A stretch of 64,000 bases of DNA, taken from an uncultured virus (IMG/VR IMGVR_UViG_3300032050_000089). Its lineage: Duplodnaviria > Heunggongvirae > Uroviricota > Caudoviricetes. Positions within the stretch are counted from its first letter, which is position 1; every line of letters starts with the position of its first letter. Positions 9,205 through 28,300 of the stretch are shown piece by piece. The notes under the pieces are model-generated. The model saw nothing but the letters and a program-made list of their open reading frames with translations. It did no database searches and was not told the DNA's origin. A program made the translations under genes and the position numbers. Location of the stretch: the IMG/VR virus record IMGVR_UViG_3300032050_000089, one strand, 5' to 3'.

Positions 9205-9726
9205 TCAATCTAAAGTAGTATTTCCCGGATCGGGATTAAAGCTGTAGTATGTATAGGCAAAACTAGCACTTACTCTTGCTGGCTCGGATGCAGGCAGGGT
9301 TGTATCAAAACCAATGCCACCTAATGATATGGGGAATATGTCAAAGAAGGTAGCAGTAATATTTGCTGTATAAGAACTCTTCTGAATAATAAGAGTTCCG
9401 GTTGATGTAAATTTATTTTCAGGAATATTATAAGTACAATCTGAATCAAGATTACCAATATTTCTCATCCATCTATAAATCTCCAACCAGTTAGTCATGT
9501 TTTCATCTACAATGAATTCAATATCAAGATTTGCAAAATTATAAGTTCCAAGTGGTCTTTTTACTGGAACACCTAATGTGGTTGGCTGATCAAAATTTGG
9601 AGATATAATACCGGGCAACGATACTTTCTGTAAAAAGAAAGTTGTTGTAGGAATTCTAGACAACTTAAAGGTATAAAAATTCCTATTAAGTTGACTAATA
9701 TTAACTGGATAATCAGCTTGCGCCAT
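9205..9726 (-). CDS. gp3: Tail tube terminator / tail completion protein
   Basis: FFLQKVSLPGI, FIVDENMTNWLEIYRWM, FDIFPISLGG; located after gp23. Confidence 0.9.
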   Translation of the reverse strand: MAQADYPVNISQLNRNFYTFKLSRIPTTTFFLQKVSLPGIISPNFDQPTTLGVPVKRPLGTYNFANLDIEFIVDENMTNWLEIYRWMRNIGNLDSDCTYNIPENKFTSTGTLIIQKSSYTANITATFFDIFPISLGGIGFDTTLPASEPARVSASFAYTYYSFNPDPGNTTLD

Positions 9727-9740
9727 AATGTATGTATAAT

Positions 9741-9770
9741 GAAAAAGGGAGAGGATTTCTCCTCTCCCTT
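9741..9770 (-). terminator. Rho-independent terminator after gp23
   Basis: AAGGGAGAGG-agaaat-CCTCTCCCTT followed by TTTC on the minus strand. Confidence 0.85.
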
Positions 9771-9794
9771 CTCATTTCCTTTTATAGAAACTTA

Positions 9795-11189
9795 TCAGTT
9801 ACCAGTGTTACCGTGGAGGTTGGTGACTGCGAAGAGTCTATAGTACTGATTCTTACCTTCGGTCATGGTTGCACCAAGTGGCGAACCAGCGTCGCGGACG
9901 AATGGATTCTGGACCATGCCGTAGCGGGTCTTGAAGCCAATCTTGGGCTGGAAGGTATCAGGATCGACTGCACGAACCATCTGGAGTGGAACGTATGGGC
10001 AGTAGAAGAGACCAGCGTCGTAGGGGCTTGCGCCTCTATAGCCAACGCAGACGAAGTTCTGGGTTGCGCTGCTGTAGGGGTCGATGTAAACGCGCATCTT
10101 ACCAGCTAGAATACCAGCGAAGGTGTTTCCGGTATCGTCAACTTCAAGCTGGGTAGCAGGAGCTGGGGTCAACTGGAGGAAGCCACCCATGGTGAGGGCT
10201 GAAGCAACGTCTGATGAGCAGACGATGAAGTTACCCTTACCGCGACGAGTATCCTTAGCGATTACATTAGCTTCACGTTCAATCTGGAACATGAGGCCAC
10301 GGAAGCGTTCTGCGCTCCAACGACCGTCTGAGTCGAGAGCGAGGTCATATGCACCACCAGTACCGGGAGTTGCTGATTTATAGTAAAGATCTGACTGCTG
10401 TGCGCCTAGCTTGGCAACGTGATAAATGTTGCGGATAAGCTCGCGGTTCATTTCAGCAAGAATTTCAGTGCTGAGGATGTTGGCGAGTTCGGTTTCAGCG
10501 TCAAGTCCGTGAACAGCCTTGAGGTCCTGAGCAAGCTCAGTGGTGTACTCTGCCTTTAGAGCGCGAGTCTTGGCAGTTACGGCAATACGGTCGATAGCAA
10601 AAGCCATTTCCTTAAATGGAGTTCCAGCAACTCCAAGATTTTCAGCGGTGCTTGTGTTAAACGCCTTGAAATCTTCTCCAAAGATAGTAGCCTTTGAAAC
10701 AGTATTTCCAGAGAAGCTTAGTGGGGCGACTCCAGTAAGTGGATCGGTTGCAGCACCAGTTGAGGTTGAACCTGAACCGCTGAACTTAGCGAATGGTTCA
10801 GCGAATAGAGCTTCATCTCCACTCTGGCTGTCATACTTAGATCTCATTGCGAAAATGAGTCCGGTAGGAGCAGTCATGGGCTGAACACCAGCGATATCGT
10901 AGGCCATGAGGTTAGGCATAGCACGACGAACAAGGCTGATGAGGATTGGGTCATAACCAGCTAGGTTGGTGTTAGGGGCACCATTAGTGTTAAGATTGAA
11001 TCCACCACCAATTGCATTGGCTGAAGTTTCGGTTAGATACTGCTGACGCATAGCAGCTTCTTGGTTCTCAAGAAGGACTGCGGTTACTTTCTTCTTGTAT
11101 ACATCTTCAATAGCGGGAACTGCGTCGTGATTTAGGACGGGGTTCCACTTTTCAGTTAAAATATCATACGGTGTTGAGTCTTCGAACAT
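9795..11189 (-). CDS. gp23: Major capsid protein
   Basis: LISLVRRAMPNL, GVQPMTAPTGLIFAMRS, RALKAEYT.ELAQDLKAVHGLDAE.EL, FQPKIGFKTRYG. Confidence 0.99.
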   Translation of the reverse strand: MFEDSTPYDILTEKWNPVLNHDAVPAIEDVYKKKVTAVLLENQEAAMRQQYLTETSANAIGGGFNLNTNGAPNTNLAGYDPILISLVRRAMPNLMAYDIAGVQPMTAPTGLIFAMRSKYDSQSGDEALFAEPFAKFSGSGSTSTGAATDPLTGVAPLSFSGNTVSKATIFGEDFKAFNTSTAENLGVAGTPFKEMAFAIDRIAVTAKTRALKAEYTTELAQDLKAVHGLDAETELANILSTEILAEMNRELIRNIYHVAKLGAQQSDLYYKSATPGTGGAYDLALDSDGRWSAERFRGLMFQIEREANVIAKDTRRGKGNFIVCSSDVASALTMGGFLQLTPAPATQLEVDDTGNTFAGILAGKMRVYIDPYSSATQNFVCVGYRGASPYDAGLFYCPYVPLQMVRAVDPDTFQPKIGFKTRYGMVQNPFVRDAGSPLGATMTEGKNQYYRLFAVTNLHGNTGN

Positions 11190-11227
11190 TTTTATTTTTC
11201 TCCTGTGTTATTTAGGTTAAATCCTGA

Positions 11228-12274
11228 TTATTTCTTAATGTGTCTACTCATTGCTCTAGCCACCTGAGCGACGGTTTCATTGTCAATAGTGGGTGCTGAA
11301 GGCTGAACCATCTCATGTAGATCCATTACTGGACTAGCTACTGGAGCTACTGAAGCTGGTCTGGCTTCTTGTTTTCTGAAGAAATAAGCTTCCTTAAGCG
11401 ATTGTAGCTTACCTCTAAACGAATCTTCTCCATCGAAATCAAGGCCCTTGGCAAGCGAACCTAGTTTCTCGACTTGTGTATCGGTTAATCCATGGCATTC
11501 TTCAAGGAAGATGCTTGAGATCTTATTGGCAACACTTTCCTTTTTGAGGTTCATGTTTTCGTTAATGACCTTGTTCATGGTTCTTGTCAATTCATCATTT
11601 TGTTCAAATAGTTCATCGACAAGGTTGTACTTCTCTTCTGGAACATCAATGTAATGTGCTTCGAATAGATTCTTGAGGCCACGAATGAAGTTTTCAGCAA
11701 CTTGAGTCTTGATGCCGCGTTCAACTTCAACCTTGTTCTCTGTCATCCATTCTTCTACGACATAGCCAAGATACTCATCAAGTTTCTCAGCCAATGTTCC
11801 TGCCATAATTTCAAGATTCTTCTCATACTGCTCGGCAAGAATCTTGGTGGTGTTCTTAGCGTGCTCTTCAACCTTTTCATTGAGTGCAGCAACAAACACG
11901 GTCTGTAGCTTGTTTACAACTTCTTCTGAAAGTGAAGCGTCAGCAAAGATTGCGTCAAATGCTTCCTTCATCTGAACAGGTGATACCTTGGGGGTAGCAA
12001 TAGTCATTTGGTTGTAGGGAGCAAGCTTGGCCATGTTTGGATCCATTCTTGGATCGGTTTGAATGAATACTCTACCGCCATTAGCATCCATGCTGCCCAT
12101 ACCATTGACATCAAAGTCAACGAATCCAGCTGCTTGTTTGCCGGGGTTAGAAGAAGTATCTTCATCCTCGGACTCATCGGTTTCGTCCTCGGTATCCATA
12201 TCTTCTTCCTCAGTTTCATCTTCCATTTCTTCGCTTAAAATTTCATCTTCGATATATTTTTTTCTATTTCTCAT
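11228..12274 (-). CDS. gp22: Prohead core scaffold protein
   Basis: DEYL.YVVEEWM.EN...E.GIK....E.FI.GLK.LF..HYIDVPEEK. Confidence 0.93.
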   Translation of the reverse strand: MRNRKKYIEDEILSEEMEDETEEEDMDTEDETDESEDEDTSSNPGKQAAGFVDFDVNGMGSMDANGGRVFIQTDPRMDPNMAKLAPYNQMTIATPKVSPVQMKEAFDAIFADASLSEEVVNKLQTVFVAALNEKVEEHAKNTTKILAEQYEKNLEIMAGTLAEKLDEYLGYVVEEWMTENKVEVERGIKTQVAENFIRGLKNLFEAHYIDVPEEKYNLVDELFEQNDELTRTMNKVINENMNLKKESVANKISSIFLEECHGLTDTQVEKLGSLAKGLDFDGEDSFRGKLQSLKEAYFFRKQEARPASVAPVASPVMDLHEMVQPSAPTIDNETVAQVARAMSRHIKK

Positions 12275-12294
12275 ATTTTCTCCTAAATTATTTA

Positions 12295-12792
12295 TTATTC
12301 TGCATCTTGAGCTGATGGCAGTAATGAATCAGCGGTTTGTGGACTTACTCTTTTAGTTCCATCAGATCTTTCTGTTGGATCAAAAATTGCAAATGGATTG
12401 TAGCGTGTAACGCTAACTGCCTTTGCTAACTGGAATGGATTTCTACCAGCAGCATTGACTAATGTATTTGCTAACGAACTACCAACGTCACGAAGACTTT
12501 GTACTAGAGTAACGTCCAAAAAATCTTTCATATTCTTTTGAAGAATATCTTTAAGGTTAATATCTCCTAATGACTGCTTAACTGCCGCAGATCCTATTAA
12601 TGCAGTGGCAGCATCTCTTACTAAAGTCTCTGGGGACATATTGTTTAAAGCTTTTTCTGCATAATTTGTTACATCAGCTTCAGAGTCAAATGAAGTTTGC
12701 TCTGCGAGAGTCTTTTCTTGAGACTTGAGAACATTCAACTCTTCCTGAAGTTGAGCAATTTGCTTTAAATATGTTTGTTCTAAGTAGTTCAT
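12295..12792 (-). CDS. Hypothetical protein inserted between gp21 and gp22
   Basis: 165-aa ORF overlapping the gp21 stop (ATGA). Confidence 0.7.
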   Translation of the reverse strand: MNYLEQTYLKQIAQLQEELNVLKSQEKTLAEQTSFDSEADVTNYAEKALNNMSPETLVRDAATALIGSAAVKQSLGDINLKDILQKNMKDFLDVTLVQSLRDVGSSLANTLVNAAGRNPFQLAKAVSVTRYNPFAIFDPTERSDGTKRVSPQTADSLLPSAQDAE

Positions 12793-13728: not shown

Positions 13729-14130
13729 TTATTTCCTTATGTTTTTGCTGAAATCTAAAATATTTCTGTAGTTTTTGCTATTTTCAAATAGCGAAGAAGT
13801 CATTTTAACACGGTTATTTTCATTTAGATTATCAAACAAAATAGCCAACTTTTGCCCTTCTTTGCTACTAATACTTATATTTTCGCCACTGTTTAATTTA
13901 ATGTCTATAGGGTATTTTGCCTGTAAAGATTCCTTTATGACTGAAACGAATCTACCCATAGAATCAGTGGAGGTCTTTGGAGTGCATTTTTGAAGCATTT
14001 TATTTTGTTCAAAAAGCATTTTTTCATTAATCAACTGGCTAACTCTGAAAGAAAGCTCATTTTTGATGTTAAAATTAAGTTTGTTTTTGTCTAATGACTC
14101 AAAAACAATCTTTTTCAGTCTATGTTTCAT
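13729..14130 (-). CDS. Hypothetical prohead-region protein
   Basis: Overlaps the gp20 stop; LFDNLNENNR motif. Confidence 0.65.
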   Translation of the reverse strand: MKHRLKKIVFESLDKNKLNFNIKNELSFRVSQLINEKMLFEQNKMLQKCTPKTSTDSMGRFVSVIKESLQAKYPIDIKLNSGENISISSKEGQKLAILFDNLNENNRVKMTSSLFENSKNYRNILDFSKNIRK

Positions 14131-15668
14131 TGTTGCTCCTGTTGCATTTGCTGTTGTTGAGCTGCCGCAGCTTGTTGCATCTTCAAGATATCAAACTGCA
14201 TCTGAGTATTTATTACTTCAATATCTTCATCAGATTGCTTAAGAATATTCTTACGAATATAATCTGAAGAAAAATACTTACCAATGTATTGTTCAGCAGC
14301 GGCAACAAGGTCTAGTCTACTAGCAAGTACTTCTGCATCTTTAAGATCATTGAAATATGAATCTGTATTGAATTCAAATTCAATGTCGGAATACATGTCA
14401 TCCCAATCTTCTACAGTAATGATTCCCTTGAGAATTAACTGAACTTTGAGAAGATTCAAGAACAATACTGAGAAGCGTAAACGAATTCTTTCAATAAACT
14501 TGAAGAATTTAACTTCATCTCTGGTGATCTCAGCAGATCTGCCCATGTTAAACGTATTGTCACCCGCTAATCTTGATGCTGGAATATTAAGAGACTGATA
14601 AAGCTTGCGCTTGAAATATTCAACATCAGTCATTTCTCCTAGATTCTGGCCACCATCAAGAGTAGAGATTTCTGTACCTCTACCCCCTTCTCTTCTTGGC
14701 ATCCAGTAATCTTCAAGCATGGCCATGTGATTGCGATCATCTTTGATTTCACCAGTTGTCTGGTTGTAAATCATTCTGTTGCGATATCTGTTCATCAATT
14801 CACGCACATATTGTTCTGCCTTTTGCTTTGGCAAATTCCCAACGTCAACATAGAAAATGCGACGTTCTGGTGCGCGTGAAATTCTATACACTACAATTGC
14901 GTCTTCTAATTGACGCAACATGTTCATAGTTCTAATAGCCTTTTGGAGGTATCCAACGACTCTCTTTGTATTCATATCTACTAACCCAGAGTGAGCATAG
15001 CAGATTGAATCGGTTGATAATCTAAGACCAGTTGGTCCAGTTGATATTAAAGAATCTTTGTTAGTATCCGTATAAAGATAATATTCTTCAACTTCTTGAA
15101 TCATTGGTACGATGGCCGAGCCAACTCTCTTCTGATTCTTTTTAAGATTTTTGATTTTCTTGATTTTGATTGGATCAAGTGGTATAAGTTTTCTTATTCC
15201 TAGCTGAGGATTGTCATTATCAATTTCTAGGAAATAATAAATTTTTCCATCAATATACCATCTACGGAAAATTTCATAACATTTTCCTTTGAAATCCATA
15301 ATCTTCAGTAAGTTATCAAACTCTTTATGCATCTTTGATTTGATGCTATCCGAAAGATTAAGTTTATCTAATTGTAATTTAATTGGCTTACGATCTGTAC
15401 CAAGAACAATTGTTTCGTTTACAATTTCATCAATTGCTGTATCTACTTCAGGGTAGAGAGACATGTTTCGATACTGAGCAATGAATGCACCATCATCTCT
15501 AGCGTTGCCCGTAAAGTCGATGTAGGTGCCATAAACACCCCCAGTCTCTACTAGGTAACTGCCATCATAGTCTTCTGGTGGCATCGGGGAAGCAATCGAC
15601 TGATCACCTTCAACCTCTTTGCCTTTCTTCTTACCAAAACTAAAACCTAAAATATCAGATAGTGCCAT
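14127..15668 (-). CDS. gp20: Portal protein
   Basis: FRRWYIDG, YRISRAPERRIFYVDVGNLPK.KAEQY, MLEDYWMPRREGGRGTEI.TL.GGQNLGE. Confidence 0.99.
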   Translation of the reverse strand: MALSDILGFSFGKKKGKEVEGDQSIASPMPPEDYDGSYLVETGGVYGTYIDFTGNARDDGAFIAQYRNMSLYPEVDTAIDEIVNETIVLGTDRKPIKLQLDKLNLSDSIKSKMHKEFDNLLKIMDFKGKCYEIFRRWYIDGKIYYFLEIDNDNPQLGIRKLIPLDPIKIKKIKNLKKNQKRVGSAIVPMIQEVEEYYLYTDTNKDSLISTGPTGLRLSTDSICYAHSGLVDMNTKRVVGYLQKAIRTMNMLRQLEDAIVVYRISRAPERRIFYVDVGNLPKQKAEQYVRELMNRYRNRMIYNQTTGEIKDDRNHMAMLEDYWMPRREGGRGTEISTLDGGQNLGEMTDVEYFKRKLYQSLNIPASRLAGDNTFNMGRSAEITRDEVKFFKFIERIRLRFSVLFLNLLKVQLILKGIITVEDWDDMYSDIEFEFNTDSYFNDLKDAEVLASRLDLVAAAEQYIGKYFSSDYIRKNILKQSDEDIEVINTQMQFDILKMQQAAAAQQQQMQQEQQ

Positions 15669-15679
15669 AATAAATCCTA

Positions 15680-16255
15680 TTAATTAATATTAATTGTTCC
15701 GTCTTTTGTAAACACATCAACCACGCTATCGTATGCTATAACCATGCTAAATTGACACACGGTATTTTTTTGATTCATATCAAGTTCTATTGGGCCTACA
15801 ATGTAAGGAAAACATCCTTCAAGCGTAACGCTTTTAATTGTGTCGCCGTTTAACCCAAGTTGTTTAACAATCCAACCATTCTGCTTGTAAGAATCGTAGC
15901 TAGAAGCAGAGGTAGTTCTAAGATTTGAATCATGGTCGTTTATACTGTTACTCCATTTGTGGAATGCTTCCCAAACAGTATCAGTCCCCGTGTCATCTAG
16001 AATTGTGACATTCCAGAATGGAAATAGTCTATCTCCGGGATTCTTTAGAGTTCTACCTCTATAGTTATACCGAAGAGTTGTAAGATTTGCTGGAGGAACA
16101 TTTAATGCTAGAGCATGAATATGGAATCCACCAGTATTATCATTTCCCCACCCATTATTTGAATTGGGAATTTGCCCGGAAATAGAATATCTGTTTCCTC
16201 TTGGGAATGAGGTAAAAGCATCTCTGAAGGTTGAAATTTTGCTATCGCAGCTCAT
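15680..16255 (-). CDS. gp19: Tail tube protein, paralogue B
   Basis: YRGRTLK.PGDR.F..W.VTILDD, AFHKWSN.IN, VKQL, GCFP..VG.IELD. Confidence 0.88.
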   Translation of the reverse strand: MSCDSKISTFRDAFTSFPRGNRYSISGQIPNSNNGWGNDNTGGFHIHALALNVPPANLTTLRYNYRGRTLKNPGDRLFPFWNVTILDDTGTDTVWEAFHKWSNSINDHDSNLRTTSASSYDSYKQNGWIVKQLGLNGDTIKSVTLEGCFPYIVGPIELDMNQKNTVCQFSMVIAYDSVVDVFTKDGTININ

Positions 16256-16788
16256 GAGTATTTTGTTATCCTAAATTGATCGTAATTCATTGTTACATTA
16301 AAAACAACAGGATTAACATTTGAAGCATTAAAATTCAAAGCACCTACAGATGCTGGCCAACAACCAAGTAGCTCCAATTCACGAAGAGTGCCATTATTGG
16401 TTGTATTTAATTGTCTAACCTTCCAGTTAGTTTTTGTTTTTACAAAGTTAAGATTGTTACTATCCGTAACATTTCCTAAAATTTTATTAATTCTATTTGA
16501 CCAACTTGTAAATGCTTTCCACAAAGAATTTGTTCCGGTATCGTCATAAACGACCAAATTCCATGCTTCATATTCTCTATCCCCAGCAAGATTTAAAACT
16601 CTTCCTCTATAAGGAATTTGAATGATGCCAACATCTGATTGAGGCATACTGGCAGATACTACATGAAAGCAAGTTTGAGGATTCTCGGTAATGATGCTAG
16701 GCCAATTACCTTCAACCTCAAATCGGTTTTGGCGAGTGCCACCGTTGAATTTTTGTTTGAAATAACTTAGTGAATTTGCGTTGCTCAT
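16252..16788 (-). CDS. gp19: Tail tube protein, paralogue A
   Basis: GGTRQNRFEV, PYRGRVLNLAGDR.Y..W, VRQL, GCWP..VG.L.F. Confidence 0.9.
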   Translation of the reverse strand: MSNANSLSYFKQKFNGGTRQNRFEVEGNWPSIITENPQTCFHVVSASMPQSDVGIIQIPYRGRVLNLAGDREYEAWNLVVYDDTGTNSLWKAFTSWSNRINKILGNVTDSNNLNFVKTKTNWKVRQLNTTNNGTLRELELLGCWPASVGALNFNASNVNPVVFNVTMNYDQFRITKYS

Positions 16789-16815
16789 CGTTTTCTACCC
16801 TATTATCTATGTATT

Positions 16816-18228
16816 TTAAGGTATGATAATTATTGATTGCTCCACAAAATCATTAGTTGGATTGGTTGTATAGGCTACATCTACCTTCAACCTTCTATTT
16901 ATGCGATCTACCGGAGTGTTATTGGTATCATCAGCCACTACATTGAATGAATTAATAGCCCCATTAGACAACAGACCATTCATAAATGTAAGTATTTCGG
17001 AGGTTAGCTGTAACCGAGTAACTTCATTGTTAAGCTCAAACACATAATTTTCACAAATTGAAGTTATTTGAGTCTTAATAAATTTAGTTATATTAACAAA
17101 ATAAACACTCTTTTCGCTGAGAGCTAAAGTAAATGGTGCTGAATTATCGGTTTGAGATTCACAAGTTAGATCGCTTAAGAAATAGCAACCATAAATGCCA
17201 TCAAAACTATAGAATGTTGCATAATTTATTCTATTATTGATAAGTCCTGTTATAGTATTTTTAAATTCAGCTACCGAATTACTTTCAGAAAATGGCAAGA
17301 CATATTCAGTATCCTCTTGTACAATATTAAGCAATGGACCGATTAAAAAGTTTGATGTGCTTCCCCACGGAGTGCCAGCCAATTTCAATCTAGCAAATTG
17401 CCCTGCTAGATCATAAATCATAGGAACTGGAATTTTAGTCCAAAGTTCACTTGTAGCTTCTGGATCTGATTCTGGATTGATGCATCGATTTCTTATCTTT
17501 ACACCCAAAAGCTCTATAATATTTTGATCGATTAGTTTTCCATTTGAAACAATAAAATTATTATATTCTGAAGTACCATAAACACTTGATGAGAAATTGT
17601 CATATGCAAAAATTCCTAATGTTGGGAATTCCTCAGTAAATACATCAGCGGGAGCAATATCATCTTCAAAATTTGAATAGATTTCACCAAGTTGACCATT
17701 AAATGTAAAAGGCGTTCCTGCTGTATTTCCTTCTTCTTTTACTTCAAGAATAAAATAATTTAATAAGTTTTTTTCAAATTCTGTGTTTTGAATGATTATT
17801 GGAGTATCTTGAATTCCAGTAAACCCAGAACCAGTAAGTCCGTTAAAAATATTATTAACAATGCACCCAGCACCCGTAGAATTAACAACACTTTGAATAT
17901 TTTTTGATGTATATGCACCCGATACCGTCAGACCAGTAGTATTCATGACATATACTGATGCCCCATATTCCAACATCGTCATGATTCCGTGTAATTCTAC
18001 ATCTGCTCTTTTAATGTCATCAGAATCGGGACCAGATCGAAATGTTATGGCAGTATAACCAAATAGCGTATTGACAAAATCATCTAAAGATTCTACATAA
18101 GTTAACTGATCAGATCCAAGGCTGGAAGTGGTAATACCAGACAAAACACTCTGCGTTAATGGAGTAACAAAAGCGAGAACTTTAAAATCGCTTGGTGTAG
18201 AAGTTTGTCCGTAGTTAACTATGTTCAT
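16816..18228 (-). CDS. gp18: Tail sheath paralogue C (most diverged)
   Basis: YDLAGQFAR, YVFELNNEVTR, VADDTNNTPVDRINRRLKVDV sheath C-terminal motifs. Confidence 0.75.
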   Translation of the reverse strand: MNIVNYGQTSTPSDFKVLAFVTPLTQSVLSGITTSSLGSDQLTYVESLDDFVNTLFGYTAITFRSGPDSDDIKRADVELHGIMTMLEYGASVYVMNTTGLTVSGAYTSKNIQSVVNSTGAGCIVNNIFNGLTGSGFTGIQDTPIIIQNTEFEKNLLNYFILEVKEEGNTAGTPFTFNGQLGEIYSNFEDDIAPADVFTEEFPTLGIFAYDNFSSSVYGTSEYNNFIVSNGKLIDQNIIELLGVKIRNRCINPESDPEATSELWTKIPVPMIYDLAGQFARLKLAGTPWGSTSNFLIGPLLNIVQEDTEYVLPFSESNSVAEFKNTITGLINNRINYATFYSFDGIYGCYFLSDLTCESQTDNSAPFTLALSEKSVYFVNITKFIKTQITSICENYVFELNNEVTRLQLTSEILTFMNGLLSNGAINSFNVVADDTNNTPVDRINRRLKVDVAYTTNPTNDFVEQSIIIIP

Positions 18229-19358
18229 GACAACAGAGATATGCTGAAGCTTAGAGTAATACTCTTAACTGGTAGATTTGGTACTATTGTTAGATCTACC
18301 TTTAGCTGTCTCTGATTGATCACTGTTTGAGGATTATTAGTCTCGTCGCAAATTAAAGTGTAGCTAACCAAGGATCCGTTAGAAACCATAGGATCAAGAA
18401 TATTTTGCATTTTTGATTTGATGGCGGATCTAGTGGTAGCATCATTGAATTCAAAGACATAATCATCCAAGATAGATGTAACTTCACGATTAATATAAAG
18501 GAATGCCCTTGAGAATCCGTAGGAACTCTTTGCGCTTGTGCTATCTCGGAATCCAGTTTCATCTCCCCAAAGGTAATATTTACCCTTTGATTGAAGATAA
18601 TTAAAATAATTTATTCCTCTTGAAGCCAGTGTAGTCGATGATGTAAATGACAGCTTAGGAGTTACGTTTGTATAATTTAAAAGCTCGCCTCTATAAACAC
18701 CAGCAGAAGTGAGATAAGGTTTTGATTGAGCAGAAGCTCTTGCGTTCGCTCCGGCAGCATCAGATACAAGGAAGATTGTAATGGCACTTGTAGATGATGA
18801 ACTGCCTGTATAGAATCTTGGTCTTTCCTTATAGCCAATTATTGTGGCTGCAAGATAAGAAATTGCAGTTGTACCAGTAGCTCCTAATTGAGTTGTAACT
18901 GATGATATGATTGCGGCTTGATCTGGATTCGTATAATCTCCAGATTGATCTCTATCAGATCCAATAATAGCATTGCAGTTAAGTCGTGCCTTTGCAACAC
19001 TTATAACATCTGAATATCTAGAAGAATCTTCTGTAATGACTTCTGAAATCTTGGCTGATGATAAAGCAAGCCCTGCGGTGGTTCCCGCAATAACCATTTT
19101 ACCACCATATTCCATGCAATTAAAAATTGAATGAATTTCTTTATCAACGAGGCTGTTTGTTACAATACTGGTGTAGCTTGTTCTTTCAGCCAAAGTGGAA
19201 ATTGAATCAGAAATGGTTTCAAGATTTGTAAATGAATCAGTAGTTGTTCCTAATAAATTATATGTCGATGCGGAGCACAAAAACCCAGTGTAGTGATCTG
19301 TGGCAGACACTGGGGTTATGTTAAATGTGTTTGATTGTGTGGTTGTGGTAATCGGCAT
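18225..19358 (-). CDS. gp18: Tail sheath paralogue B (compact, 377 aa)
   Basis: SDAAGANAR, LWGD.T, YVFEFNDATTR, ICDETNNPQTVI. Confidence 0.85.
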   Translation of the reverse strand: MPITTTTQSNTFNITPVSATDHYTGFLCSASTYNLLGTTTDSFTNLETISDSISTLAERTSYTSIVTNSLVDKEIHSIFNCMEYGGKMVIAGTTAGLALSSAKISEVITEDSSRYSDVISVAKARLNCNAIIGSDRDQSGDYTNPDQAAIISSVTTQLGATGTTAISYLAATIIGYKERPRFYTGSSSSTSAITIFLVSDAAGANARASAQSKPYLTSAGVYRGELLNYTNVTPKLSFTSSTTLASRGINYFNYLQSKGKYYLWGDETGFRDSTSAKSSYGFSRAFLYINREVTSILDDYVFEFNDATTRSAIKSKMQNILDPMVSNGSLVSYTLICDETNNPQTVINQRQLKVDLTIVPNLPVKSITLSFSISLLS

Positions 19359-19368
19359 ATACTATTTA

Positions 19369-22300
19369 TTAGATTTGATTAAGAACGAAATTCAACACTA
19401 TTGATTCAATCGAATTATTTGGTACTATTGTCAAGTCAACAACCAATCTCTTCTGAGCAACTACAGATGGAGTATTGTTTGTTTCGTTACAAATTAGGAT
19501 ATAAGAAGCAAGGCCTCCGATTGATTGTAACTTATCAAGAACAGTAGTTGCTCTTGAAACAAACTGTGCTCTTGTACCAGCATTATTTTGTTCGAATTGG
19601 AAGTCCTCAAAGATCTTCTTAAATTCTTTCTTGATTGTGCTAGTGTTCTTAGAGACAGAAGCTGACTTTCTATACACTTCATTTCCTGTAGTTATACCAG
19701 TAGCATCTCCCCAAATTGCGGCTCTATTTGTACCGCTTGGGATGTAGATTGGATTTATTCCTCTGGTGTAATAACCAGAGAGATCACGATCTACTATAGT
19801 TGGAGTGATGTTTGAATATGTTCTAATTCCACCTCTTGCCGAACCAGAGCTTGACAGATGGTACTTATTCTCGACGTATGAGCGAGCATATGCGCCTGCA
19901 ACATCTGACGAGAGATACAAGCGAACAGTCTCAGTTCCAGAGCCATAGAAGCGAGTTCTATTCTTGTAGCCAAGTACTGAGAACACATATTCACCCTTAT
20001 TTGCAGTTGTCATATAGGTCAATCCATCAACAAGCCCTGCGGAATTTAGATTCGTATAGGCTGGAGCTGCAAACGAGGCTGCGTCCTCCTCAAGAGATGT
20101 ACCGACAATAACAATTGCGTGGTTCTTTTCGGAACCGATACGCATCAATTCGCCATATCTCTTGTTATCTTCGGTGAATACAATGTCATATTCGTAGTTG
20201 CTTCCCAACAGTCCATCGATAGTTGGGGAGACAATGATGTTTCCGCCGTAATCCATGAAGTTAAGAAGAGAATGAATTTCGACATCTGTTGAAGTATTTG
20301 CTGTCAATGTCCCAGCATCAAACGCAGCTTTAGCATTCGCGTAGGCTGTGCTGCTGCTTGTGAGTACTGAATATGAAGCAGTGCTGTTGTTAGTGATAAT
20401 GTTATATGCAGTTGTTCCGCATAGGAATCCAGCATAGAAATCATTTTCAGTCGAGGTAAATGCTACTCCAGTAACCACAGATTCGGATACGCTTACTGAA
20501 CCGCTAGATGATCCACCACCACCGCCACCTGTTGTTGTTTGAGCGGCAGTGGTAAAAGATGTCTCTCTAACATAAGAATTAGTTCTCAATGTATCTAAAT
20601 CACTTGTTATATTAATGAATGATTTAAATATTGGGCTTACTCTTACAGTAAGAGTTGCGGACGCAGGCCATCCAGTTGTTGGGGGTGTTATTGTTATTCC
20701 ACCTAATGTCGATCCACTACCAACAAAAATACTAGTTATGGCTCTTGGAGTGGCTGTATAATAAGCAGCATAATTTGTAATACCCAGACCTGAGTAACCC
20801 GGTATTCTATAGTCATTGGTACTAGAAGTTGAGTATAATAAATTTTTGGTAAATAGTTCAGAAGCCCCATTTAGAACCGATAATCGTAACCCATCAAAAA
20901 TTGATGAGTGTGGCAAATCTTTTACAGTTATTGTCGTTGTTAGTGATTGCTGTGCTTGTATTGAAGATGTTGATGATAACGTTACACCTGTAATTCTATA
21001 ATCATAGAAAATATAATGAGGGAAACTAATTGTAGTATCGGCAAAACTAAATGCGGTTGATGGGAAGAAGGTACTACCGCCGGAATATCTTAAAAACGAT
21101 CCGGGATTAGCAAGAACCCATTCTCCCCCATTGAAAGTCTCTGGTGGATTGTCACCCTGATCAAACATAAGTGTAAAACCAGTATCATATTGAGGATAGT
21201 TAAAGTCGTCAAAAACTGCTGATAATTGAGCCTCGGTCAAGGGGGGACCATTAAAATAGTTCATCAATTGAGTTAATGAACTATTACCCTCAATTGTATC
21301 GAATGGCCAACCTTCAGTAATAACTCCTTCAAAATTCCTCAAAGGAATACTTAAAGAAATACCATTTATAGTATTTAAAGTATTAGCACGTTCTAAAGCC
21401 GATTCTCTAAAAGAGCGTAAAGTTCGATTTGTAACATTAATACTATTATTTACAACATTTTCTGGACCAACAGAATCAATTATAAAACTCAGATAGCCTG
21501 TATAGAACGTACCATCTGGTAAAAAATTATCTACGTTTGATTGCATATAATATCTGCTATGGATATTATTTCTTCCAACTATTCCAGACTCAAGATTTGT
21601 TAGACCGTGATTTACAGTTATTCTCATTAAATCAACAGCGGGAGCAATAAATCTCGTAAAGTTTACTGGATTGCCTTGTTGTTGTGTGACACCAGTTGCT
21701 ATTAACGTCAGTCCAGAAATATTTCCTACTGTATGAATAGGTGAAAATGTTCTAAATGGAGTTGTAATCGGAGTTGAGCCAAATTCAAAACTTATACCAT
21801 CCCCTCTTGTAAATGAAATTCTTGCAGTTCCTGTAGATCCAACACTATTTAAATTTGGAACAACAAAGGTTTCAATATTTGATTGATCAAAAGTTTTTCT
21901 TATAAATCCTATTTCAGTTGTATTTCTAGGAATAAATGTTCTGTTATCAGCAATAGTAATTCCTAAAGCAAAATTACCAGATGCATCATATAAATTTAAT
22001 TTTTCTAAATATCCAAGTGGTCTATTTTGATAGTGTATTTCAACAGAATTTCCGGGCACTAGCGTAGACCCGCTAGCGGTACCCTGAATTGGAATAAAAA
22101 CGTCATCTCCGGTCAATGAATAAAAATCTGCGGGAGAACCTGTATTTATTGGTAAAATAAATGATATACCATTTGCTGGATTGCCATAAAATACTTTTAA
22201 TTCACTTTGTGTAGATCCCTGACCAAAAGTAAATCCGGTAAATCCCCACGGGTTGGAATGAGTATTAAAATCTACTCTATAAAAAGCTCTGTTGATATGA

Positions 22301-23751
22301 TTTAAATTTCTTCTAGCAGATAAATCACCAGATTCGTTTATTAATCTAAAAAATCTTTTATTGGTAGCTATTTGTGAATCAGTTGTATAAAAATGAGCCA
22401 CAGTATCTGTATTAAAAATAATATTGTATGGATTATAAACTTTTTCGTAAAAAGTTACACCATCTAATAATACAGTTAAAGTGTTTCCAACTGTTAATCC
22501 CAGAGGAATAAACCCAAATAATGGTGGTATGAATGAAATATTACTAACAGCACCACCTCCATATAATGTTGTACCTCTAGTGTTAAAACCATAATCTAAT
22601 TTGTGAAATGTATTTCCTGTTAAATTGTTCGTAATACCATATGGTGTTGCTACCAAATTAAATGTTATTGGATCAAAAACCGATAAAGTTTTATCGGCAA
22701 AATCTACATTAGAAAAGCCTTTAGATAAAATAGGTACTCTTGATGAAAACGGATTTGTAAAATGGGTCACACCGGAAGATAAACTATAAACTCCAGTTAA
22801 CCCAGAAGAAATATTATTTGTAATATTAATATTTGTTTGTGGTAAAGTAATTAAATTTGCCGAAACATTAGTAAGGGGTTCATCAGAAGAAAATACTGGT
22901 AATCCAAAAAATGAATTTGGAATTGGCATTAAATAATAACTTCCAGTCGGAATATGTTTTGGAACTACAAATTCTGTAAAAGAAGTATTGAATATTGTTG
23001 CACCAGAAGTATCAACGATTCTTCGAAGAGTATTAAATTTTGCATCGCTTCCAGAAATATTAGGATCTAAATAATCAGCATTTATTTCTGAAATTTGTGT
23101 AGATGTTAAATTAGAAGAATTTAAAGAAATATTATTAGTACACCCAAGTAATGAAACAATACCATAAAAAGTTGCTCCAGTTCCTATACCAACATAATAT
23201 CTTTGAATATTAGCAGATTCTAAAGTTAATCCGAGGGTGGATCCTGCAACTCCATTTGTAGCCGAAACAATATTAAATGGTCTAAATGAAAGCGTTTCGC
23301 CCCTAGTTGATGATGCTACTTCACCTATTGCACCAGATCCAGTTTGACCAAATGCTCCATATTTTAAAGTAAATGTATTTCTTGATCGATAATGTAAATC
23401 TTGATTAAGTATTTGATTGGCAAGTCCACCATTAAATACATTTGATTGAGGTGAAAATAATGTAATTCCAATAAAATGGTTCCATGTAGTACCAGTATTA
23501 CTGACAACAAGTCCATTTGAATTATTTGCTACCACAAATTCTGAAGAAACATTATCTGCCCTTAAATCATCAATAGAAGTGTAAGGAATAGAAAAATCAA
23601 ACGTGGCATTTGAGATAAGAATGTCAAAAATAACTGAAGAAAAAGACACACCATCAACAGAAAAGGTTAAACCGACAGTTAAAGGGGCACTTCCGGGAGT
23701 CAGGCCTATAAGAGTTCCGCTAATATTATGAGAGTGTGTTAATTCAGCCAT
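19369..23751 (-). CDS. gp18: Tail sheath paralogue A with ~1,070-aa N-terminal appendage
   Basis: C-terminal ~385 aa: SDVAGAYAR, RGINPI, IWGDAT, FEQNNAGTR, ICNETNNTPSVV; joined by a G6S3 linker to a Thr/Gly/Asn-rich extension. Confidence 0.85.
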   Translation of the reverse strand: MAELTHSHNISGTLIGLTPGSAPLTVGLTFSVDGVSFSSVIFDILISNATFDFSIPYTSIDDLRADNVSSEFVVANNSNGLVVSNTGTTWNHFIGITLFSPQSNVFNGGLANQILNQDLHYRSRNTFTLKYGAFGQTGSGAIGEVASSTRGETLSFRPFNIVSATNGVAGSTLGLTLESANIQRYYVGIGTGATFYGIVSLLGCTNNISLNSSNLTSTQISEINADYLDPNISGSDAKFNTLRRIVDTSGATIFNTSFTEFVVPKHIPTGSYYLMPIPNSFFGLPVFSSDEPLTNVSANLITLPQTNINITNNISSGLTGVYSLSSGVTHFTNPFSSRVPILSKGFSNVDFADKTLSVFDPITFNLVATPYGITNNLTGNTFHKLDYGFNTRGTTLYGGGAVSNISFIPPLFGFIPLGLTVGNTLTVLLDGVTFYEKVYNPYNIIFNTDTVAHFYTTDSQIATNKRFFRLINESGDLSARRNLNHINRAFYRVDFNTHSNPWGFTGFTFGQGSTQSELKVFYGNPANGISFILPINTGSPADFYSLTGDDVFIPIQGTASGSTLVPGNSVEIHYQNRPLGYLEKLNLYDASGNFALGITIADNRTFIPRNTTEIGFIRKTFDQSNIETFVVPNLNSVGSTGTARISFTRGDGISFEFGSTPITTPFRTFSPIHTVGNISGLTLIATGVTQQQGNPVNFTRFIAPAVDLMRITVNHGLTNLESGIVGRNNIHSRYYMQSNVDNFLPDGTFYTGYLSFIIDSVGPENVVNNSINVTNRTLRSFRESALERANTLNTINGISLSIPLRNFEGVITEGWPFDTIEGNSSLTQLMNYFNGPPLTEAQLSAVFDDFNYPQYDTGFTLMFDQGDNPPETFNGGEWVLANPGSFLRYSGGSTFFPSTAFSFADTTISFPHYIFYDYRITGVTLSSTSSIQAQQSLTTTITVKDLPHSSIFDGLRLSVLNGASELFTKNLLYSTSSTNDYRIPGYSGLGITNYAAYYTATPRAITSIFVGSGSTLGGITITPPTTGWPASATLTVRVSPIFKSFINITSDLDTLRTNSYVRETSFTTAAQTTTGGGGGGSSSGSVSVSESVVTGVAFTSTENDFYAGFLCGTTAYNIITNNSTASYSVLTSSSTAYANAKAAFDAGTLTANTSTDVEIHSLLNFMDYGGNIIVSPTIDGLLGSNYEYDIVFTEDNKRYGELMRIGSEKNHAIVIVGTSLEEDAASFAAPAYTNLNSAGLVDGLTYMTTANKGEYVFSVLGYKNRTRFYGSGTETVRLYLSSDVAGAYARSYVENKYHLSSSGSARGGIRTYSNITPTIVDRDLSGYYTRGINPIYIPSGTNRAAIWGDATGITTGNEVYRKSASVSKNTSTIKKEFKKIFEDFQFEQNNAGTRAQFVSRATTVLDKLQSIGGLASYILICNETNNTPSVVAQKRLVVDLTIVPNNSIESIVLNFVLNQI

Positions 23752-25389
23752 TTATTTTACCTCAAACCATAAGTCGCCACCAAATTTCATCTCTTCCCTG
23801 TCATCCATATCTGCAACGAACATATGATTTTCTTGTTGTTGTTCATCTGTATTTATTATTTTCTTATTCTTTAAATCCAGCAAATCTTCAAAGTAAACTT
23901 GTCTAGTAAGCCAACCAAATAATACTAAGCACATAACTAAGTCATCGTTATAGCCATCATCAGCCTGATAAGAATTTGCCTTTGAAATAAAAGTATAAAG
24001 CTCAGAAACCATGTCCTGATCAAAAAATACCAGTTTATCGCATTCAACTAGATTCTTGAGGGCAGCACACCCGATCTTTTTAAGAGCAGTGCTGGTTCTA
24101 ACACCAAATTGCTTTTGACCCCTACCGAATCCTAATGAAATTTTTTGACCAGCCCTACCCATGTATTGAGTCGAAATCAAATTTTCATACTCATAATCTC
24201 TATGTAAAATCTCAGTTACTTGGGAACCAACATCGTTGATTTCGACCAAGCAATGGGCATTGCCATACTCTGTGCAGGCATTATAGACCTCAATGGGAAA
24301 GTCAAATGGGGAGATGACATTGTTTCTATAGACCGCTACTACCTCAAACGGCTTTGTGTTTCCGTCAATGATTACAAATGCGCTATAGTCATGTCCCTGA
24401 CCTCTAGAAGTATCTACTACGCAGAAGTAAATTCCATCCTCATTTGGTGGCTTGTAAATACTCAATCCCCCGGGTCTGCGTTCGTATGGCTGATTATAAA
24501 CTAGCGTATTGAGTTTATATGTCGAGATAAGGGTATTTGAAGAACCCAAGAATGAGCATTCAAATTCACTTTCAAACTGCATCTCGCTAGTCTGATCGAT
24601 CATTTGCTGCCGCCATTCAGCCCCTCTCATGGGTCCACCCGGATACAGGGGTATCTGCCTCCAGTTGACCTCAATGGGCACATATTCGTTCTTACCCGGC
24701 TCCCCGTCCTTCTTAATAGCATTCTTCCAGAAGTGGTAGAACATGTTCATACCGTTTGGAGTACTAACCATCAATACCTTTGTTGTTTGGCCTGATGTTA
24801 CGGTTGGGAATACTGAACTAAAGAATTCTTCGGCAACATTATTTGGAACGTGAGCAAATTCGTCCAAAAAGATCATGTTAAATGATCCACCACGAATCGC
24901 GGAGGCTGAGGTAGTTGATGCGATAATTTTAGATCCGTTTTCTAACTTTAACGATCCTTTATTCCATTCCACCACGCCCTGCTGCAACCATTTAGGAAGA
25001 TATTCATATGCCAATTGAAGTCTGCTTAAAATTTCTCTGGCAGTAGATCCTTTATTGGCTAGAATAGCTACATTCATACTCTGATTGAACAGAATATAAT
25101 GTAGAATGTATGATACCATTGTGGTAGACTTACCCGACTGGCGAGGAAGTTTTGCGATGATAAATCTGTTATCATGCATTTTTTGAACGATATCTTCCTG
25201 ATAATCATAAAGATTAAAAGGCACTAAACCCTTATCAAGAGAGACAATTTTGATATAATTCTTGATGAAATAAATGGGATCTTTGGCACATTTAATATAC
25301 TCCTGAACTTGCTCGGGGGTATAATCAATATGGATTCCGGCCTCTTTGAGGTTCGAATTACCCAGATAACCTTTATGTTTTTTGCTCAT
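23752..25389 (-). CDS. gp17: Terminase large subunit
   Basis: YLGN.NLK, PRQSGKST, LDEFAHV, STPNGMN.FY, VDTSRG.G.DYSAF, NDDLVM. Confidence 0.98.
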   Translation of the reverse strand: MSKKHKGYLGNSNLKEAGIHIDYTPEQVQEYIKCAKDPIYFIKNYIKIVSLDKGLVPFNLYDYQEDIVQKMHDNRFIIAKLPRQSGKSTTMVSYILHYILFNQSMNVAILANKGSTAREILSRLQLAYEYLPKWLQQGVVEWNKGSLKLENGSKIIASTTSASAIRGGSFNMIFLDEFAHVPNNVAEEFFSSVFPTVTSGQTTKVLMVSTPNGMNMFYHFWKNAIKKDGEPGKNEYVPIEVNWRQIPLYPGGPMRGAEWRQQMIDQTSEMQFESEFECSFLGSSNTLISTYKLNTLVYNQPYERRPGGLSIYKPPNEDGIYFCVVDTSRGQGHDYSAFVIIDGNTKPFEVVAVYRNNVISPFDFPIEVYNACTEYGNAHCLVEINDVGSQVTEILHRDYEYENLISTQYMGRAGQKISLGFGRGQKQFGVRTSTALKKIGCAALKNLVECDKLVFFDQDMVSELYTFISKANSYQADDGYNDDLVMCLVLFGWLTRQVYFEDLLDLKNKKIINTDEQQQENHMFVADMDDREEMKFGGDLWFEVK

Positions 25390-28300
25390 GTTCTATAAGG
25401 TGCAGTAGTAATTCCATCTGCCATTGGACCAGCATCTTGATATTCAAAACGTAAATTGTAATTGTTGAATGTGGTTCCATCAGCGAGAATAGAAACTTCA
25501 TCTGTTATTAGCCAAACTCCCATGGGGTAATATTTACTTGGAATTAAATTGCCTACCAGTGTATTGCCAGCAAAAACATTTACACTAAATCTTCTAATAT
25601 TTGGATTTGTTCTTAAAGTTCTCCATGAGTGGGTTCCATTACTTTCAGTTACTACTGATTTAGTATAAAAATCCAAATCTCTATTTCCCGTGGTTATAAG
25701 GTTGATATTATCAAGGGTATTACCTGTTTGAGGATCAACGCTTGTTGCCAAAACATTCTCGGCAAAATGATTATTATACCAATTATCATAATAAGTGTCT
25801 TGATCTGGTCTTCCATAATCAGAAGTTAAAATATATGGGATTGGTAGGGTTATTCTATGCAATATAAGATTTTGGTCTGATGCGTTTGTAGCTAACAATC
25901 TTACTTTGCTTAATAGTGCTGGATTCAATTTAGATATATTAAATCCTCCGACTTCAACCCGTAAACTCTCTGCAATGTTTATATCGTCTGAACTTGAAAG
26001 ATATTCATATGTTCTTCCATGAGTTGCTACTTCCATGTCCCACAAAATATGATTCAAAAGTATTTCATCATTATACTTGAAATTATTCCATGTTTTAGGA
26101 TGAATTCCATAGTAACCAGCACTTCCATCATTTTCATTTGTTATAGGTCCTTGGAAAATAACTGATTGATTGAGGATGTTAAGGGGTAAATTGGTCAATA
26201 ATTTCGATATAAAGATATTTTCATTATATGAGTGATAAAAATTAATTGGTTGATAATTTGGATTTGTTCTTGGATTAGCTGTAAAATTTGTTTTTGAAAA
26301 TATTGCTGGATCTGTATAAGTAAATCCTTCAGCATTATTATTAGCAGAAGATGGAATAAAATCCATAAACCAACTATTCTCATAACCGTGAGGAATGTGA
26401 TATGAAACTCTGTTGAATTGGATATTGTTATAAATAAAAATTCCAGAAACTCCATGGTTCATATTTTCTTCTATAATTCCACGAATAATTCTAGATTCAT
26501 CCTTCATAGCGAGGAATGGCTCATATTTTTCGGATAGTCTTGTACCCGCAAATGGTCTTTGAGTAGGATCATAATACTCGCCAAAGAATGTTACTAATGT
26601 TCCATCCCCAATTGTAGGAACTGAATTGCTTGTTTCGAAATATTGTGGATTGTATGAAATACCACAGATAAAAGTAGTTCCCGTCTGACCGAGATTTTCT
26701 GATGTAAACCAAGGAACTAATTTGTTAGACGCATTATTTACCTGTGCAAGAGTAGGATTATTTTGAGGTATAATTGCGTTTTCCACAAATGCAAAAGTAA
26801 TAGCGTTTACTGGTGTAGGTGCATATCCAGTTCTTCTATACCTAGCTTGAAAATCAGTATAAGTATATGGAGAACCGTAAGGATAGTGATATATCAATTC
26901 ATATGGTAAAGTCACTCCTTGTGAAAAGCTTTGAGCAGTAACATCATGGAATCTACCAGTAGATTTTACTCTTGGAAGTCTATTAACATGCACAGGAGCA
27001 AACTTACATCCGGGACTTCTGCGTTCGGTTGTTTCTTGCAAACCACCCCAATATTTCTTAAATTCATTATCATAAAATTCTTGTAATGGTAATGCGTCTA
27101 TTGGAAATTGAATTCCTCCATGAATTCCTTTTTTACTTAGTGGACCACTGGTAGCATAAAGAAATGCATTTTTCATTCCATCAAAAATACGATCAAAAGA
27201 TAATCCCGGATATTCTGCATATTTTGCTTCAAGCTGCGGCCAGAATTGATCTTGTTTTACTTTATTAATCCATGCAGTTGTTAATCCATCAACTAACAAC
27301 ATTAATTTCCACAATAATAAAGAATCTGTTCCTAAACCCAATCCCCACCGCAATTCATGATCATTAAAAATAATATCTACACATGGAGTAGGTGGAACAA
27401 AAGTAACTCCATTAATGTTTTTTCCAGCATAAACAAAATCGAATAATTTATTCCATCCACCAACATAAGTAGTTCCGAATTTACCAGCATAATTTTCTCT
27501 TCCAGTAAATCCCGTTGCGGCATAAGCAGTAAAACCTAACATATCAGTAACAAGATTTGGAGTAAACGGAGAAGGTACTAAAAATGTATTACCATTATGG
27601 ACTAAATTATAACAATCCATATAAATTGGCAAACGCATCTTATCAAACGAATCAAGATAATCAATACCACTATACGGTGGGTAGTTTGGTAGTGTTGATC
27701 CAGCAAAAATACCAGAATCAAATAACATTGCGGCTGGGTTGTTACTACCAAACGCAGTAATAACCCATGATCTTAATCCAGTAGCTCCTCTAGATGGATA
27801 TAATTTCTGAGTAAATGTTGGATCAAAAAGCGTTCTTATTGATGGTTGAGCTTGAGAGTGGGTAACGCCTGTTGAATATTTACCTGTATCTGGATATCTA
27901 TTTTGATTATTTTTATCTACAATATATCCGCTATATCCTGCTTCGATTGTAATACCCGCTGATGGATATGATCCAATACTTATAATACTTGTTGTACCAT
28001 TCCATCCCCAAAATCCATTGATGTAATAAGCCTGCGAACCATATGTTGCTTGGAACATATCTTCACTAGTTCTTCTATTCGCCAATGTGCCTTGTGTTGT
28101 GCCGAAAACACCATCACCTTGATTTGCATATAAATTTACATTTCCTCCGGGGCGCATATAAATTGGTAAACAGGGTAAAACTCTATTCTGGTCATAACTT
28201 ATGCCAGCCCACATACCATTGTGTATGACACTACCAAATGGAATTTGTGGATTGTCAATTGTATTTGCTCTGAATGTTAAACCAAATGCACGATAATATT

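Follow-up and report, generated by a model that had tools for sequence, protein, structure and literature searches.

Tail-Sheath and Tail-Tube Genes at the Locus

In the textbook case, the T4-type contractile tail, sheath and tube are each built from one protein. The subject of this work is a set of five tail genes in an uncultured virus of the class Caudoviricetes, IMG/VR record IMGVR_UViG_3300032050_000089, studied as a stretch of 64,000 nucleotides (nt), here called the window. Positions 15680-23751 of the window are filled exactly by five back-to-back minus-strand open reading frames (ORFs), three encoding sheath paralogues and two encoding tube paralogues, which probably together form a single tail with a layered structure. 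The first, sh1 (19369-23751, -; 1460 amino acids, aa), consists of an N-terminal module (20512-23751), a GGGGGGSSS linker, and a sheath core (19369-20511), and is followed by sh2 (18225-19358, -; 377 aa), a minimal sheath paralogue, and by sh3 (16816-18228, -; 470 aa), the most diverged of the three. The two gp19-type tube genes, tubeA (16252-16788, -; 178 aa) and tubeB (15680-16255, -; 191 aa), complete the set. The sh1 and sh2 genes are 10 nt apart and sh3 and tubeA 27 nt, while the pairs sh2/sh3 and tubeA/tubeB overlap in an ATGA, where the start codon of sh3 lies on the stop codon of sh2 and that of tubeB on the stop codon of tubeA; these junctions are conserved in relatives. Upstream, with 0 nt between them, sh1 adjoins the large terminase gene gp17 (23752-25389, -; Pfam Terminase_6N and Terminase_6C), which fixes the T4-type gene order, and 11 nt downstream of tubeB begins the gp20 portal gene (14127-15668, -; Pfam Portal_T4, expect value (E) 2e-171).

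Identity of the Sheath Paralogues

An earlier note, made from the DNA letters, had described three consecutive ORFs with shared sheath motifs, and all twelve motif strings that it quoted are present in the translations. Its proposal of three tail-sheath paralogues was borne out by independent family matches for each, and all three are intact and diverged. Pfam Phage_sheath_1C (PF17482) matches sh1, sh2, and sh3 (E 2.9e-5, 2.6e-7, and 2e-6), with sh2 (31.1 bits) and sh3 (28.2 bits) above the cut-off of 26.9 bits; sh1 scores 24.5 bits in the protein scan, below the cut-off, and 29.6 bits in a six-frame search, above it, and its counterparts in two related records reach 32 bits in the six-frame search. 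PHROG 23, 'tail sheath', is matched with E values of 1e-23, 1e-27, and 6e-14, respectively, and T4 gp18 chains of the PDB are matched by all three proteins (E 1.7e-14 for sh1, residues 1279-1457, then 6e-12 and 1.9e-6), while Pfam Phage_sheath_1 (PF04984) was undetected in any of the three copies. Among themselves, the sh1 core and sh2 share 33% identity over 359 aa (E 1e-52), sh2 and sh3 31% over 190 aa (E 2e-16), and sh1 and sh3 35% over 85 aa (E 2e-10). In each of the three, conservation is highest in the C-terminal handshake domain. The sheath of the injection system PlPVC1 is matched by sh2 at the sequence level with an E value of 0.014 only.

The three copies differ strongly in build. 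It had been claimed that the sheath cores, of about 380-470 aa, are shorter than T4 gp18, and the cores are indeed shorter than the gp18 chain of 659 aa; however, only sh2 and sh3 are proteins of that size, since sh1 is a 1460-aa fusion. In sh1, the N-terminal module, which has about 1,080 aa, precedes the linker and a sheath core of about 375 aa (about residues 1085-1460), and in the alignment the linker is immediately followed by the N-terminal strand of the sheath; therefore, the module is an N-terminal addition and not an insertion of the kind of T4 domains I and II. The fusion is a single unbroken ORF of 1433-1460 aa in all ten sequences spanning it (the window and nine loci). A search of 1.84 billion representative proteins with the module gave matches only to the cluster of sh1 itself and to one 62%-identical fragment; no Pfam domain and no usable ESM Atlas match were found for it. 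The G+C content of third codon positions (GC3) is 0.15 in the module vs 0.35 in the core, the ratio of nonsynonymous to synonymous substitution rates (dN/dS) 0.22 vs 0.042, and the identity per alignment column 0.5-0.9 vs 0.9-0.98; the module evolves faster than the core.

The AlphaFold2 (AF2) model of sh2 has a mean predicted local distance difference test score (pLDDT) of 75.9 and a predicted template modelling score of 0.78, with residues 1-19 disordered, as expected for a free arm. It matches T4 gp18 in Foldseek with E 2e-15 and, with template modelling (TM) scores of 0.6-0.7, the whole sheaths of about 350-385 aa of the Streptomyces contractile injection system (CIS), the antifeeding prophage (AFP), the Photorhabdus virulence cassette (PVC), and pyocin R2. 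Since the model matches these extracellular CIS (eCIS) and pyocin sheaths over their whole length, sh2 is predicted to be a complete minimal sheath. In the alignment, sh3 has a private insertion of about 130 aa, further small insertions, and a different C-terminal end, and its AF2 model, from a 22-row alignment, has a mean pLDDT of 51 and is usable only in the C-terminal domain (residues 380-470). One relative of sh3 (L005:1741-3021) shows an in-frame deletion of 43 aa within the private insertion and is otherwise identical, so the deleted part seems dispensable. The N-terminal strand motif of single-copy relatives (of the type MARPNVT.K.IDES) is lost or diverged in all three copies, and sh3 also lacks the PW.SPAG..RG motif.

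Tube Genes and Other Tube-Fold Proteins

The proposal of two intact, mutually diverged gp19 genes also held. Both tubeA and tubeB match PHROG 45, 'tail tube' (E 1e-30 and 1e-25), and their best PDB matches are T4 gp19 chains (E 8e-10 and 3e-8), gp54 being matched by tubeB at just E 0.2; the Pfam gp19 family (PF06841) gives 25.9 bits for tubeA, under the cut-off of 28.2, and no match for tubeB. The two proteins are 32% identical over 177 aa (E 3e-28) and, judging from these matches, are of the gp19 type rather than gp54, gp48, or gp3. The similarity within both paralogue families, as measured on the protein sequences, lies far beyond chance.

The window holds separate genes for the other rings of a T4-type tube. 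The tube terminator gp3, which has the tube fold, lies at 9205-9726 (-; T4 gp3 chains E 2.3e-9; PHROG 45) and a gp48-like baseplate tail-tube cap at 39636-40397 (-; PHROG 230 E 1e-13; Pfam T4_tail_cap 17.9 bits, under the cut-off). A further tube-fold protein of 190 aa (40845-41417, +; PHROG 45 E 1e-17; Pfam Phage_TTP_2 27 bits; no PDB match by sequence) is a candidate for the gp54-type junction ring and may be gp54. Thus, the second gp19 is an addition, and the extra copies are not relabelled gp3, gp48, or gp54.

Conservation and Selection

With sh2 as query, 13 related IMG/VR loci were found at 86-100% identity, and the protein-database search returned nothing between 81% and 32%. In the window's own clade, counted without de-duplication of loci, three sheath genes are present in five of five loci spanning gp17 to tube and two tube genes in nine of nine spanning sheath to portal; all spanning loci have the same gene order and intact genes. 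Identity among relatives is 58-100% for the whole of sh1 and 85-100% for gp17. The median pairwise dN/dS, taken over pairs with dS of 0.05-2.5, is 0.165 for sh1, 0.058 for sh2, 0.095 for sh3, 0.053 for tubeA, and 0.018 for tubeB, compared with 0.028 for the portal and 0.009 for gp17. All five genes are under purifying selection, and medians of 0.02-0.17 mean that none of them is decaying, a fate that had been raised as fatal to the idea of a heteromeric tail.

The same idea depended on there being no canonical gp18 elsewhere in the genome. In the nearest record (G001, 81 kb) and two related contigs (G002, 113 kb, and G003, 100 kb), whose completeness is estimated at 45-62%, PF17482 hits only the three genes and PF04984 nothing. 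A canonical gp18 elsewhere is therefore unlikely, a result that holds for the parts of the genome that these records cover.

Origin of the Paralogues

The sheath tree was built by a quick search from the last 215 residues, with 83 rows, leaving out near-identical loci and truncated ORFs, and with branch support from the Shimodaira-Hasegawa-like approximate likelihood ratio test (SH-aLRT) only. The sheath paralogues fall among those of T4-like viral contigs, and sh1, sh2, and sh3 form one clade (SH-aLRT 90), whose sister is the single sheath of locus L067 (97*). Within the clade, sh3 is the first to branch off, leaving sh1 and sh2 as a sister pair (85). The stems of sh1, sh2, and sh3 measure 1.17, 0.91, and 2.67, compared with 0.18 for L067, and are several times longer than the branches among single-copy relatives. 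This topology would fit two lineage-specific sheath duplications followed by fast divergence of all copies, and the long stems fit specialisation after duplication. The tube tree, with 75 rows, places both tubeA and tubeB, on long stems of 1.57 and 2.01, in a starred clade of 24 rows that includes single-tube relatives.

Multiplied Tail Genes in Other T4-like Viral Contigs

Two short-sheath relatives were used to fetch 82 more distant loci of T4-like viral contigs, counted without de-duplication (L047 repeats L017). The 49 distant loci that span gp17 to tube all have one sheath gene. Tube genes are more variable: among the 61 loci spanning sheath to portal, 46 have one, 11 have two, and four have three, and the loci with extra tube genes are spread over at least four other clades of the tube tree. 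The 15 loci with two or three tandem gp19-type genes and a single sheath lie among L034-L042, L052, L053, L057, L060, L067, L081, and L083.

Sheath duplications also occur outside the window's clade. Locus L069 (L069:2-4328, cut before gp17) encodes a sheath of at least 1012 aa with an internal insertion of about 690 aa, followed by a bare 421-aa copy, the two being 53% identical in the C-terminal domain. In L089, L091, L093, and L098, there are two sheath paralogues of about 1000 aa, 30% identical over their full length. The duplications in L069 and in the L089 group arose independently of that in the window. Among GenBank phage records, every record matched by sh2 (739 of 739), sh3 (296 of 296), or tubeA (2042 of 2042) has a single matching place; with the L081 tube as query, 2434 records gave 2472 places and, thus, up to 38 records have a second matching place, so that duplicated gp19 genes in deposited phages are possible and their absence is not claimed.

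Expression Signals and Habitat

Nearly the whole stretch is present in 19 DNA runs from 17 studies (18 studies with the RNA run), labelled freshwater or fungus metagenome; ten of the runs may be sources of the DNA. The label 'fungus metagenome', odd for aquatic T4-like kin, is carried by 10 of the 19 (X1-X4, X7-X9, X11, X13, and X19). One freshwater RNA library holds contigs identical to the window over gp23 (1.6 kb), gp22, tubeB, the sh1 module (two pieces), and gp15; the tubeB contig has 447 nt and covers window positions 15725-16171. These contigs fit late transcription. The RNA run X23 and the raw DNA run X24 gave nothing useful on the stretch.

Signals that could single out a major sheath or tube copy point in several directions. 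A clear Shine-Dalgarno-like GAGGT lies upstream of sh1 alone. Among the three sheaths, sh2 scores highest against most single-copy relatives, and tubeB is the most conserved copy and is also seen in the RNA library. With gp23, gp22, gp32, and gp45 as reference, the codon adaptation index (CAI) of the five genes is 0.49-0.61 vs 0.79 for gp23 and singles out no major sheath or tube copy. The T4 late promoter TATAAATA has no coding-strand match between 9 and 41 kb, and an ATAAATA just before sh2 was rejected as a promoter, as it is just 4 nt away from the start codon and runs into the sh1 stop region. The region 9700-12300 (gp23/gp22) stands out with a G+C content of 0.46 vs about 0.35, the highest codon adaptation, and the best coverage in the RNA library.

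Phage Context, gp15, and Tape Measure

The window comes from an uncultured freshwater T4-like (Kyanoviridae-type) myovirus. The closest GenBank portals, at about 50% identity, are those of T4-like cyanophages, and no near-identical DNA was found among GenBank phages. Around the sheath and tube slot, the window has the T4 core gene order of a Kyanoviridae-type T4-like core phage; its structural genes include gp13, gp14, gp16, gp15, gp21, gp22, gp23, gp3, gp6, the gp48-like cap, gp4, the further tube-fold protein, and gp26, and its replication and regulatory genes uvsY, uvsW, gp55, gp47, gp46, gp45, gp44, gp62, regA, and gp32. Among L034, L036, L070, L074, and L075, there are gp17 ORFs of 943, 1025, and about 1472 aa, vs about 545-590 aa elsewhere, which suggests that they hold inteins or other insertions. 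A 1725-aa protein with RCC1 repeats, a beta-propeller (48770-53947, +; Pfam RCC1_2 E 2e-53), is probably a virion or fibre protein. An ORF of 124 aa at 35293-35667 is a putative gp25-like initiator.

The sheath terminator gp15 (25386-29441, -; Pfam T4-gp15_tss E 6.6e-52, residues 5-225), which probably contacts the last sheath ring, has 1351 aa, comprising an ordinary domain of about 225 aa and a C-terminal extension of about 1,120 aa without a family. Of the gp15 matches in other lineages, those without a visible cut at a contig end mostly have 229-280 aa (421 in L070, 318 in L095). The last 660-700 residues or so of the extension are present in related loci, being 54-79% identical in diverged relatives and 100% in L004 (54-100% for this part overall). 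When the sh1 module, the gp15 extension, and the sh3 insertion were compared by BLASTP with all ORFs of the window and with themselves, no common domain and no internal repeats appeared. In the window, gp15 lies after gp16, whereas it lies before gp16 in Mosig and most relatives.

No tape measure was recognised in the window; an 831-aa ORF (36438-38933) was rejected for this role, having no family and not being visibly helix-rich. The 113-kb contig G002 encodes helix-rich ORFs of 918 aa (C1:95691-98447, -) and 633 aa (107968-109869, -) without a family, which are candidates for the tape measure. No tape-measure family was found for these or for a helix-rich ORF of 816 aa in the same contig, which has an HNH domain, and the 918-aa ORF had no GenBank phage match. 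A study of pelagimyophages describes tape measure and fibre proteins as not identifiable in the phage group (PMC7029224); the lack of a recognised tape measure is the rule in this group, where the sequences are too divergent. Moreover, the shortness of the sheath core says nothing on tail length, since relatives build their tails from one sheath of about 400 aa.

A Layered Tail and Its Alternatives

The preferred explanation, with an estimated probability of about 0.58, is that one contractile tail is built in which different layers come from different sheath and tube paralogues. Duplication of gp18 twice and of gp19 once within the lineage would have given five copies, all kept as working late structural genes; the sheath paralogues would be joined by the usual strand-exchange handshake, and the layered solution would have been reached independently of PVC and AFP. 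The bare sh2, closest to single-copy relatives, could form the plain layers, and sh1 could form layers or one ring carrying the large, fast-evolving module outward on a Gly/Ser tether, where it may serve surface adhesion or fibre docking. The most diverged copy, sh3, with its changed C-terminal arm, might form a special ring at one end, and one tube copy might make up the bulk of the tube and the other the adaptor ring or rings. This assignment of copies to positions is guesswork, as the hints conflict.

A layered heterotypic tail is favoured by analogy, because the combination of a bare sheath, one with an outer addition, and a diverged one, together with an extra tube, would map onto the PlPVC1 design. 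Support also comes from the tight operon in the canonical gp17-gp18-gp19-gp20 slot, with its paralogues retained and selected, and from the independent origin of a decorated and bare sheath pair in L069 and of a two-sheath pair in L089, L091, L093, and L098. Several points weigh on the other side. The three longest records are just the incomplete ones described above, which leaves room for a canonical gp18; the three-sheath clade joins long branches and could reflect long-branch attraction; and the N-terminal half of sh3 is recognised as sheath through the alignment, its model being poor. The RNA-library contigs may be DNA carry-over, and the absence of other genes there proves nothing. Finally, the hints on the major copy are in conflict, with GAGGT before sh1, the closeness of sh2 to single-copy relatives, the conservation of tubeB, and a flat CAI.

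Alternatively, a single paralogue could make up the entire sheath and another the entire tube, the remaining copies working off the lattice as an appendage anchor (sh1), an assembly factor, or a decoy for tail-sensing host defences. The loss of the N-terminal strand motif in all three sheaths and of PW.SPAG..RG in sh3, the very long stems after duplication, and the orphan sh1 module with its own composition are in line with such roles. However, the C-terminal handshake domain, which the lattice requires, is the most strongly conserved region of every copy, the cores have dN/dS values of 0.04-0.10, like structural genes, and starts are coupled among neighbours in the sheath operon; moreover, the literature consulted names no sheath paralogue with a role off the lattice. 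This alternative appears unlikely. Mixing of paralogues within rings, for instance as A3B3 tube hexamers or mixed sheath hexamers, with three-fold instead of six-fold symmetry of the tail, seems less probable again. The ATGA overlaps of tubeA/tubeB and sh2/sh3 would fit coupled, near-equal synthesis, but overlapping starts are common in such operons and leave the subunit ratio free, three kinds of sheath cannot be paired evenly with two kinds of tube, and the solved multi-paralogue system has homotypic layers (PMC12546770).

A use of the paralogues as alternatives, so that different virions or hosts would have different sheath or tube copies, is improbable: the greatest variation among relatives lies in the sh1 module and the gp15 extension, as is typical of host-interaction modules, but every spanning relative retains all copies, the genes form one tight co-oriented operon, and neither an invertible segment nor separate promoters were seen, no dedicated repeat search having been made. 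Least tenable is the stubby tail of the earlier note, in which gp48, gp54, gp19A, gp19B, and gp3 would each form one ring wrapped by three sheath types: five tube-fold and three sheath genes and the lack of a recognised tape measure in the window would allow it, but tape measures of this group generally escape annotation, G002 offers its unassigned 918- and 633-aa helix-rich ORFs, relatives with one sheath of about 400 aa and one tube gene (46 of 61 loci) cannot be built ring by ring, and the literature consulted describes no contractile tail limited to two or three rings.

If the layered tail is accepted, a bolder and rather doubtful extension is that the sheath acts as a carrier of host-interaction modules, in which a fast-evolving orphan domain of about 120 kDa would be displayed on a flexible tether at defined layers, with bare paralogues as spacers and the third copy adapting one end. 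Such a position-coded tail would be independent of eCIS and part of a wider, unnoticed habit of aquatic T4-like phages, to which the 15 of 61 loci with two or three tubes and at least two other two-sheath lineages might belong. Should the layered tail be real, position-specific layers would not be peculiar to bacterial injection systems and would have evolved repeatedly by phage gene duplication, offering a natural system for asking what tells a helical polymer at which point to change its subunit. The variable module fused to a sheath hints at a new site for host contact or fibre docking, and the recurrent tube duplications in uncultured aquatic T4-like phages suggest that single-gene annotation of gp18 and gp19 misses structural diversity.

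Comparison with Known Systems

Within T4-like phages, the window shares with T4 and cultured Kyanoviridae the gene order gp13-gp14-(gp15, gp16)-gp17-sheath-tube-gp20-gp21-gp22-gp23-gp3-uvsY-uvsW-gp55-gp47-gp46-gp45-gp44-gp62-regA, and differs from them in the length and the position of gp15 described above. In the same slot, the annotations of Pelagibacter phage Mosig and Methylophilales phage Melnitz each give a single sheath gene (639 and 663 aa, respectively) and a single tube gene. Searches of open-access papers and bioRxiv turned up neither a T4-like phage that has three sheath genes nor a large N-terminal module on any sheath protein.

Multiplied tail genes as such are already known, in the form of two-sheath jumbo phages, tandem tube candidates, and solved layered eCIS tails. 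Pseudomonas phage PaBG has two sheath paralogues, 38% identical, which originated by duplication and are both listed in the virion proteome table (PMC7412058), and a survey of sheath proteins mentions phage genomes in which the sheath is encoded twice (PMC9230969). In phage G, the sheath gene is followed by a pair of neighbouring tube candidates (PMC8570332). For RaK2, two candidate tube proteins are known. These phages belong to unrelated jumbo lineages and have two copies of similar size, whereas the window has three very unequal sheaths and two gp19 copies in a T4-core phage; the available literature passages on PaBG, phage G, and RaK2 contain no solved heterotypic sheath.

The closest likeness is with PVC and AFP, where three sheath and several tube paralogues lie in one operon (Pvc2/3/4 and Pvc1/5/7; Afp2/3/4 and Afp1/5). 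As structural studies describe (PMC12546770, PMC6899500), their sheaths comprise a bare minimal protein of about 350 aa, one that bears an outer knob, and a diverged third, arranged in homotypic, position-specific layers. The PlPVC1 sheath starts on the baseplate adaptor with a ring of Pvc4, after which bare Pvc2 alternates with knob-bearing Pvc3, with Pvc2 at the top; all sheath layers are joined by strand exchange, and the tube runs from Pvc7 through one Pvc5 ring to Pvc1 (PMC12546770). In contrast to these head-less particles of bacteria, the window belongs to a phage with head, portal, and terminase genes, and the 1,080-aa module of sh1 has no counterpart in PVC or AFP. Moreover, the window sheaths are nearest to T4 gp18 by sequence and were duplicated inside the T4-like lineage, so the likeness is convergent. 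Thus, the tail encoded in the window is not a member of the AFP/PVC systems, but, by analogy, it may work like a PVC tail.

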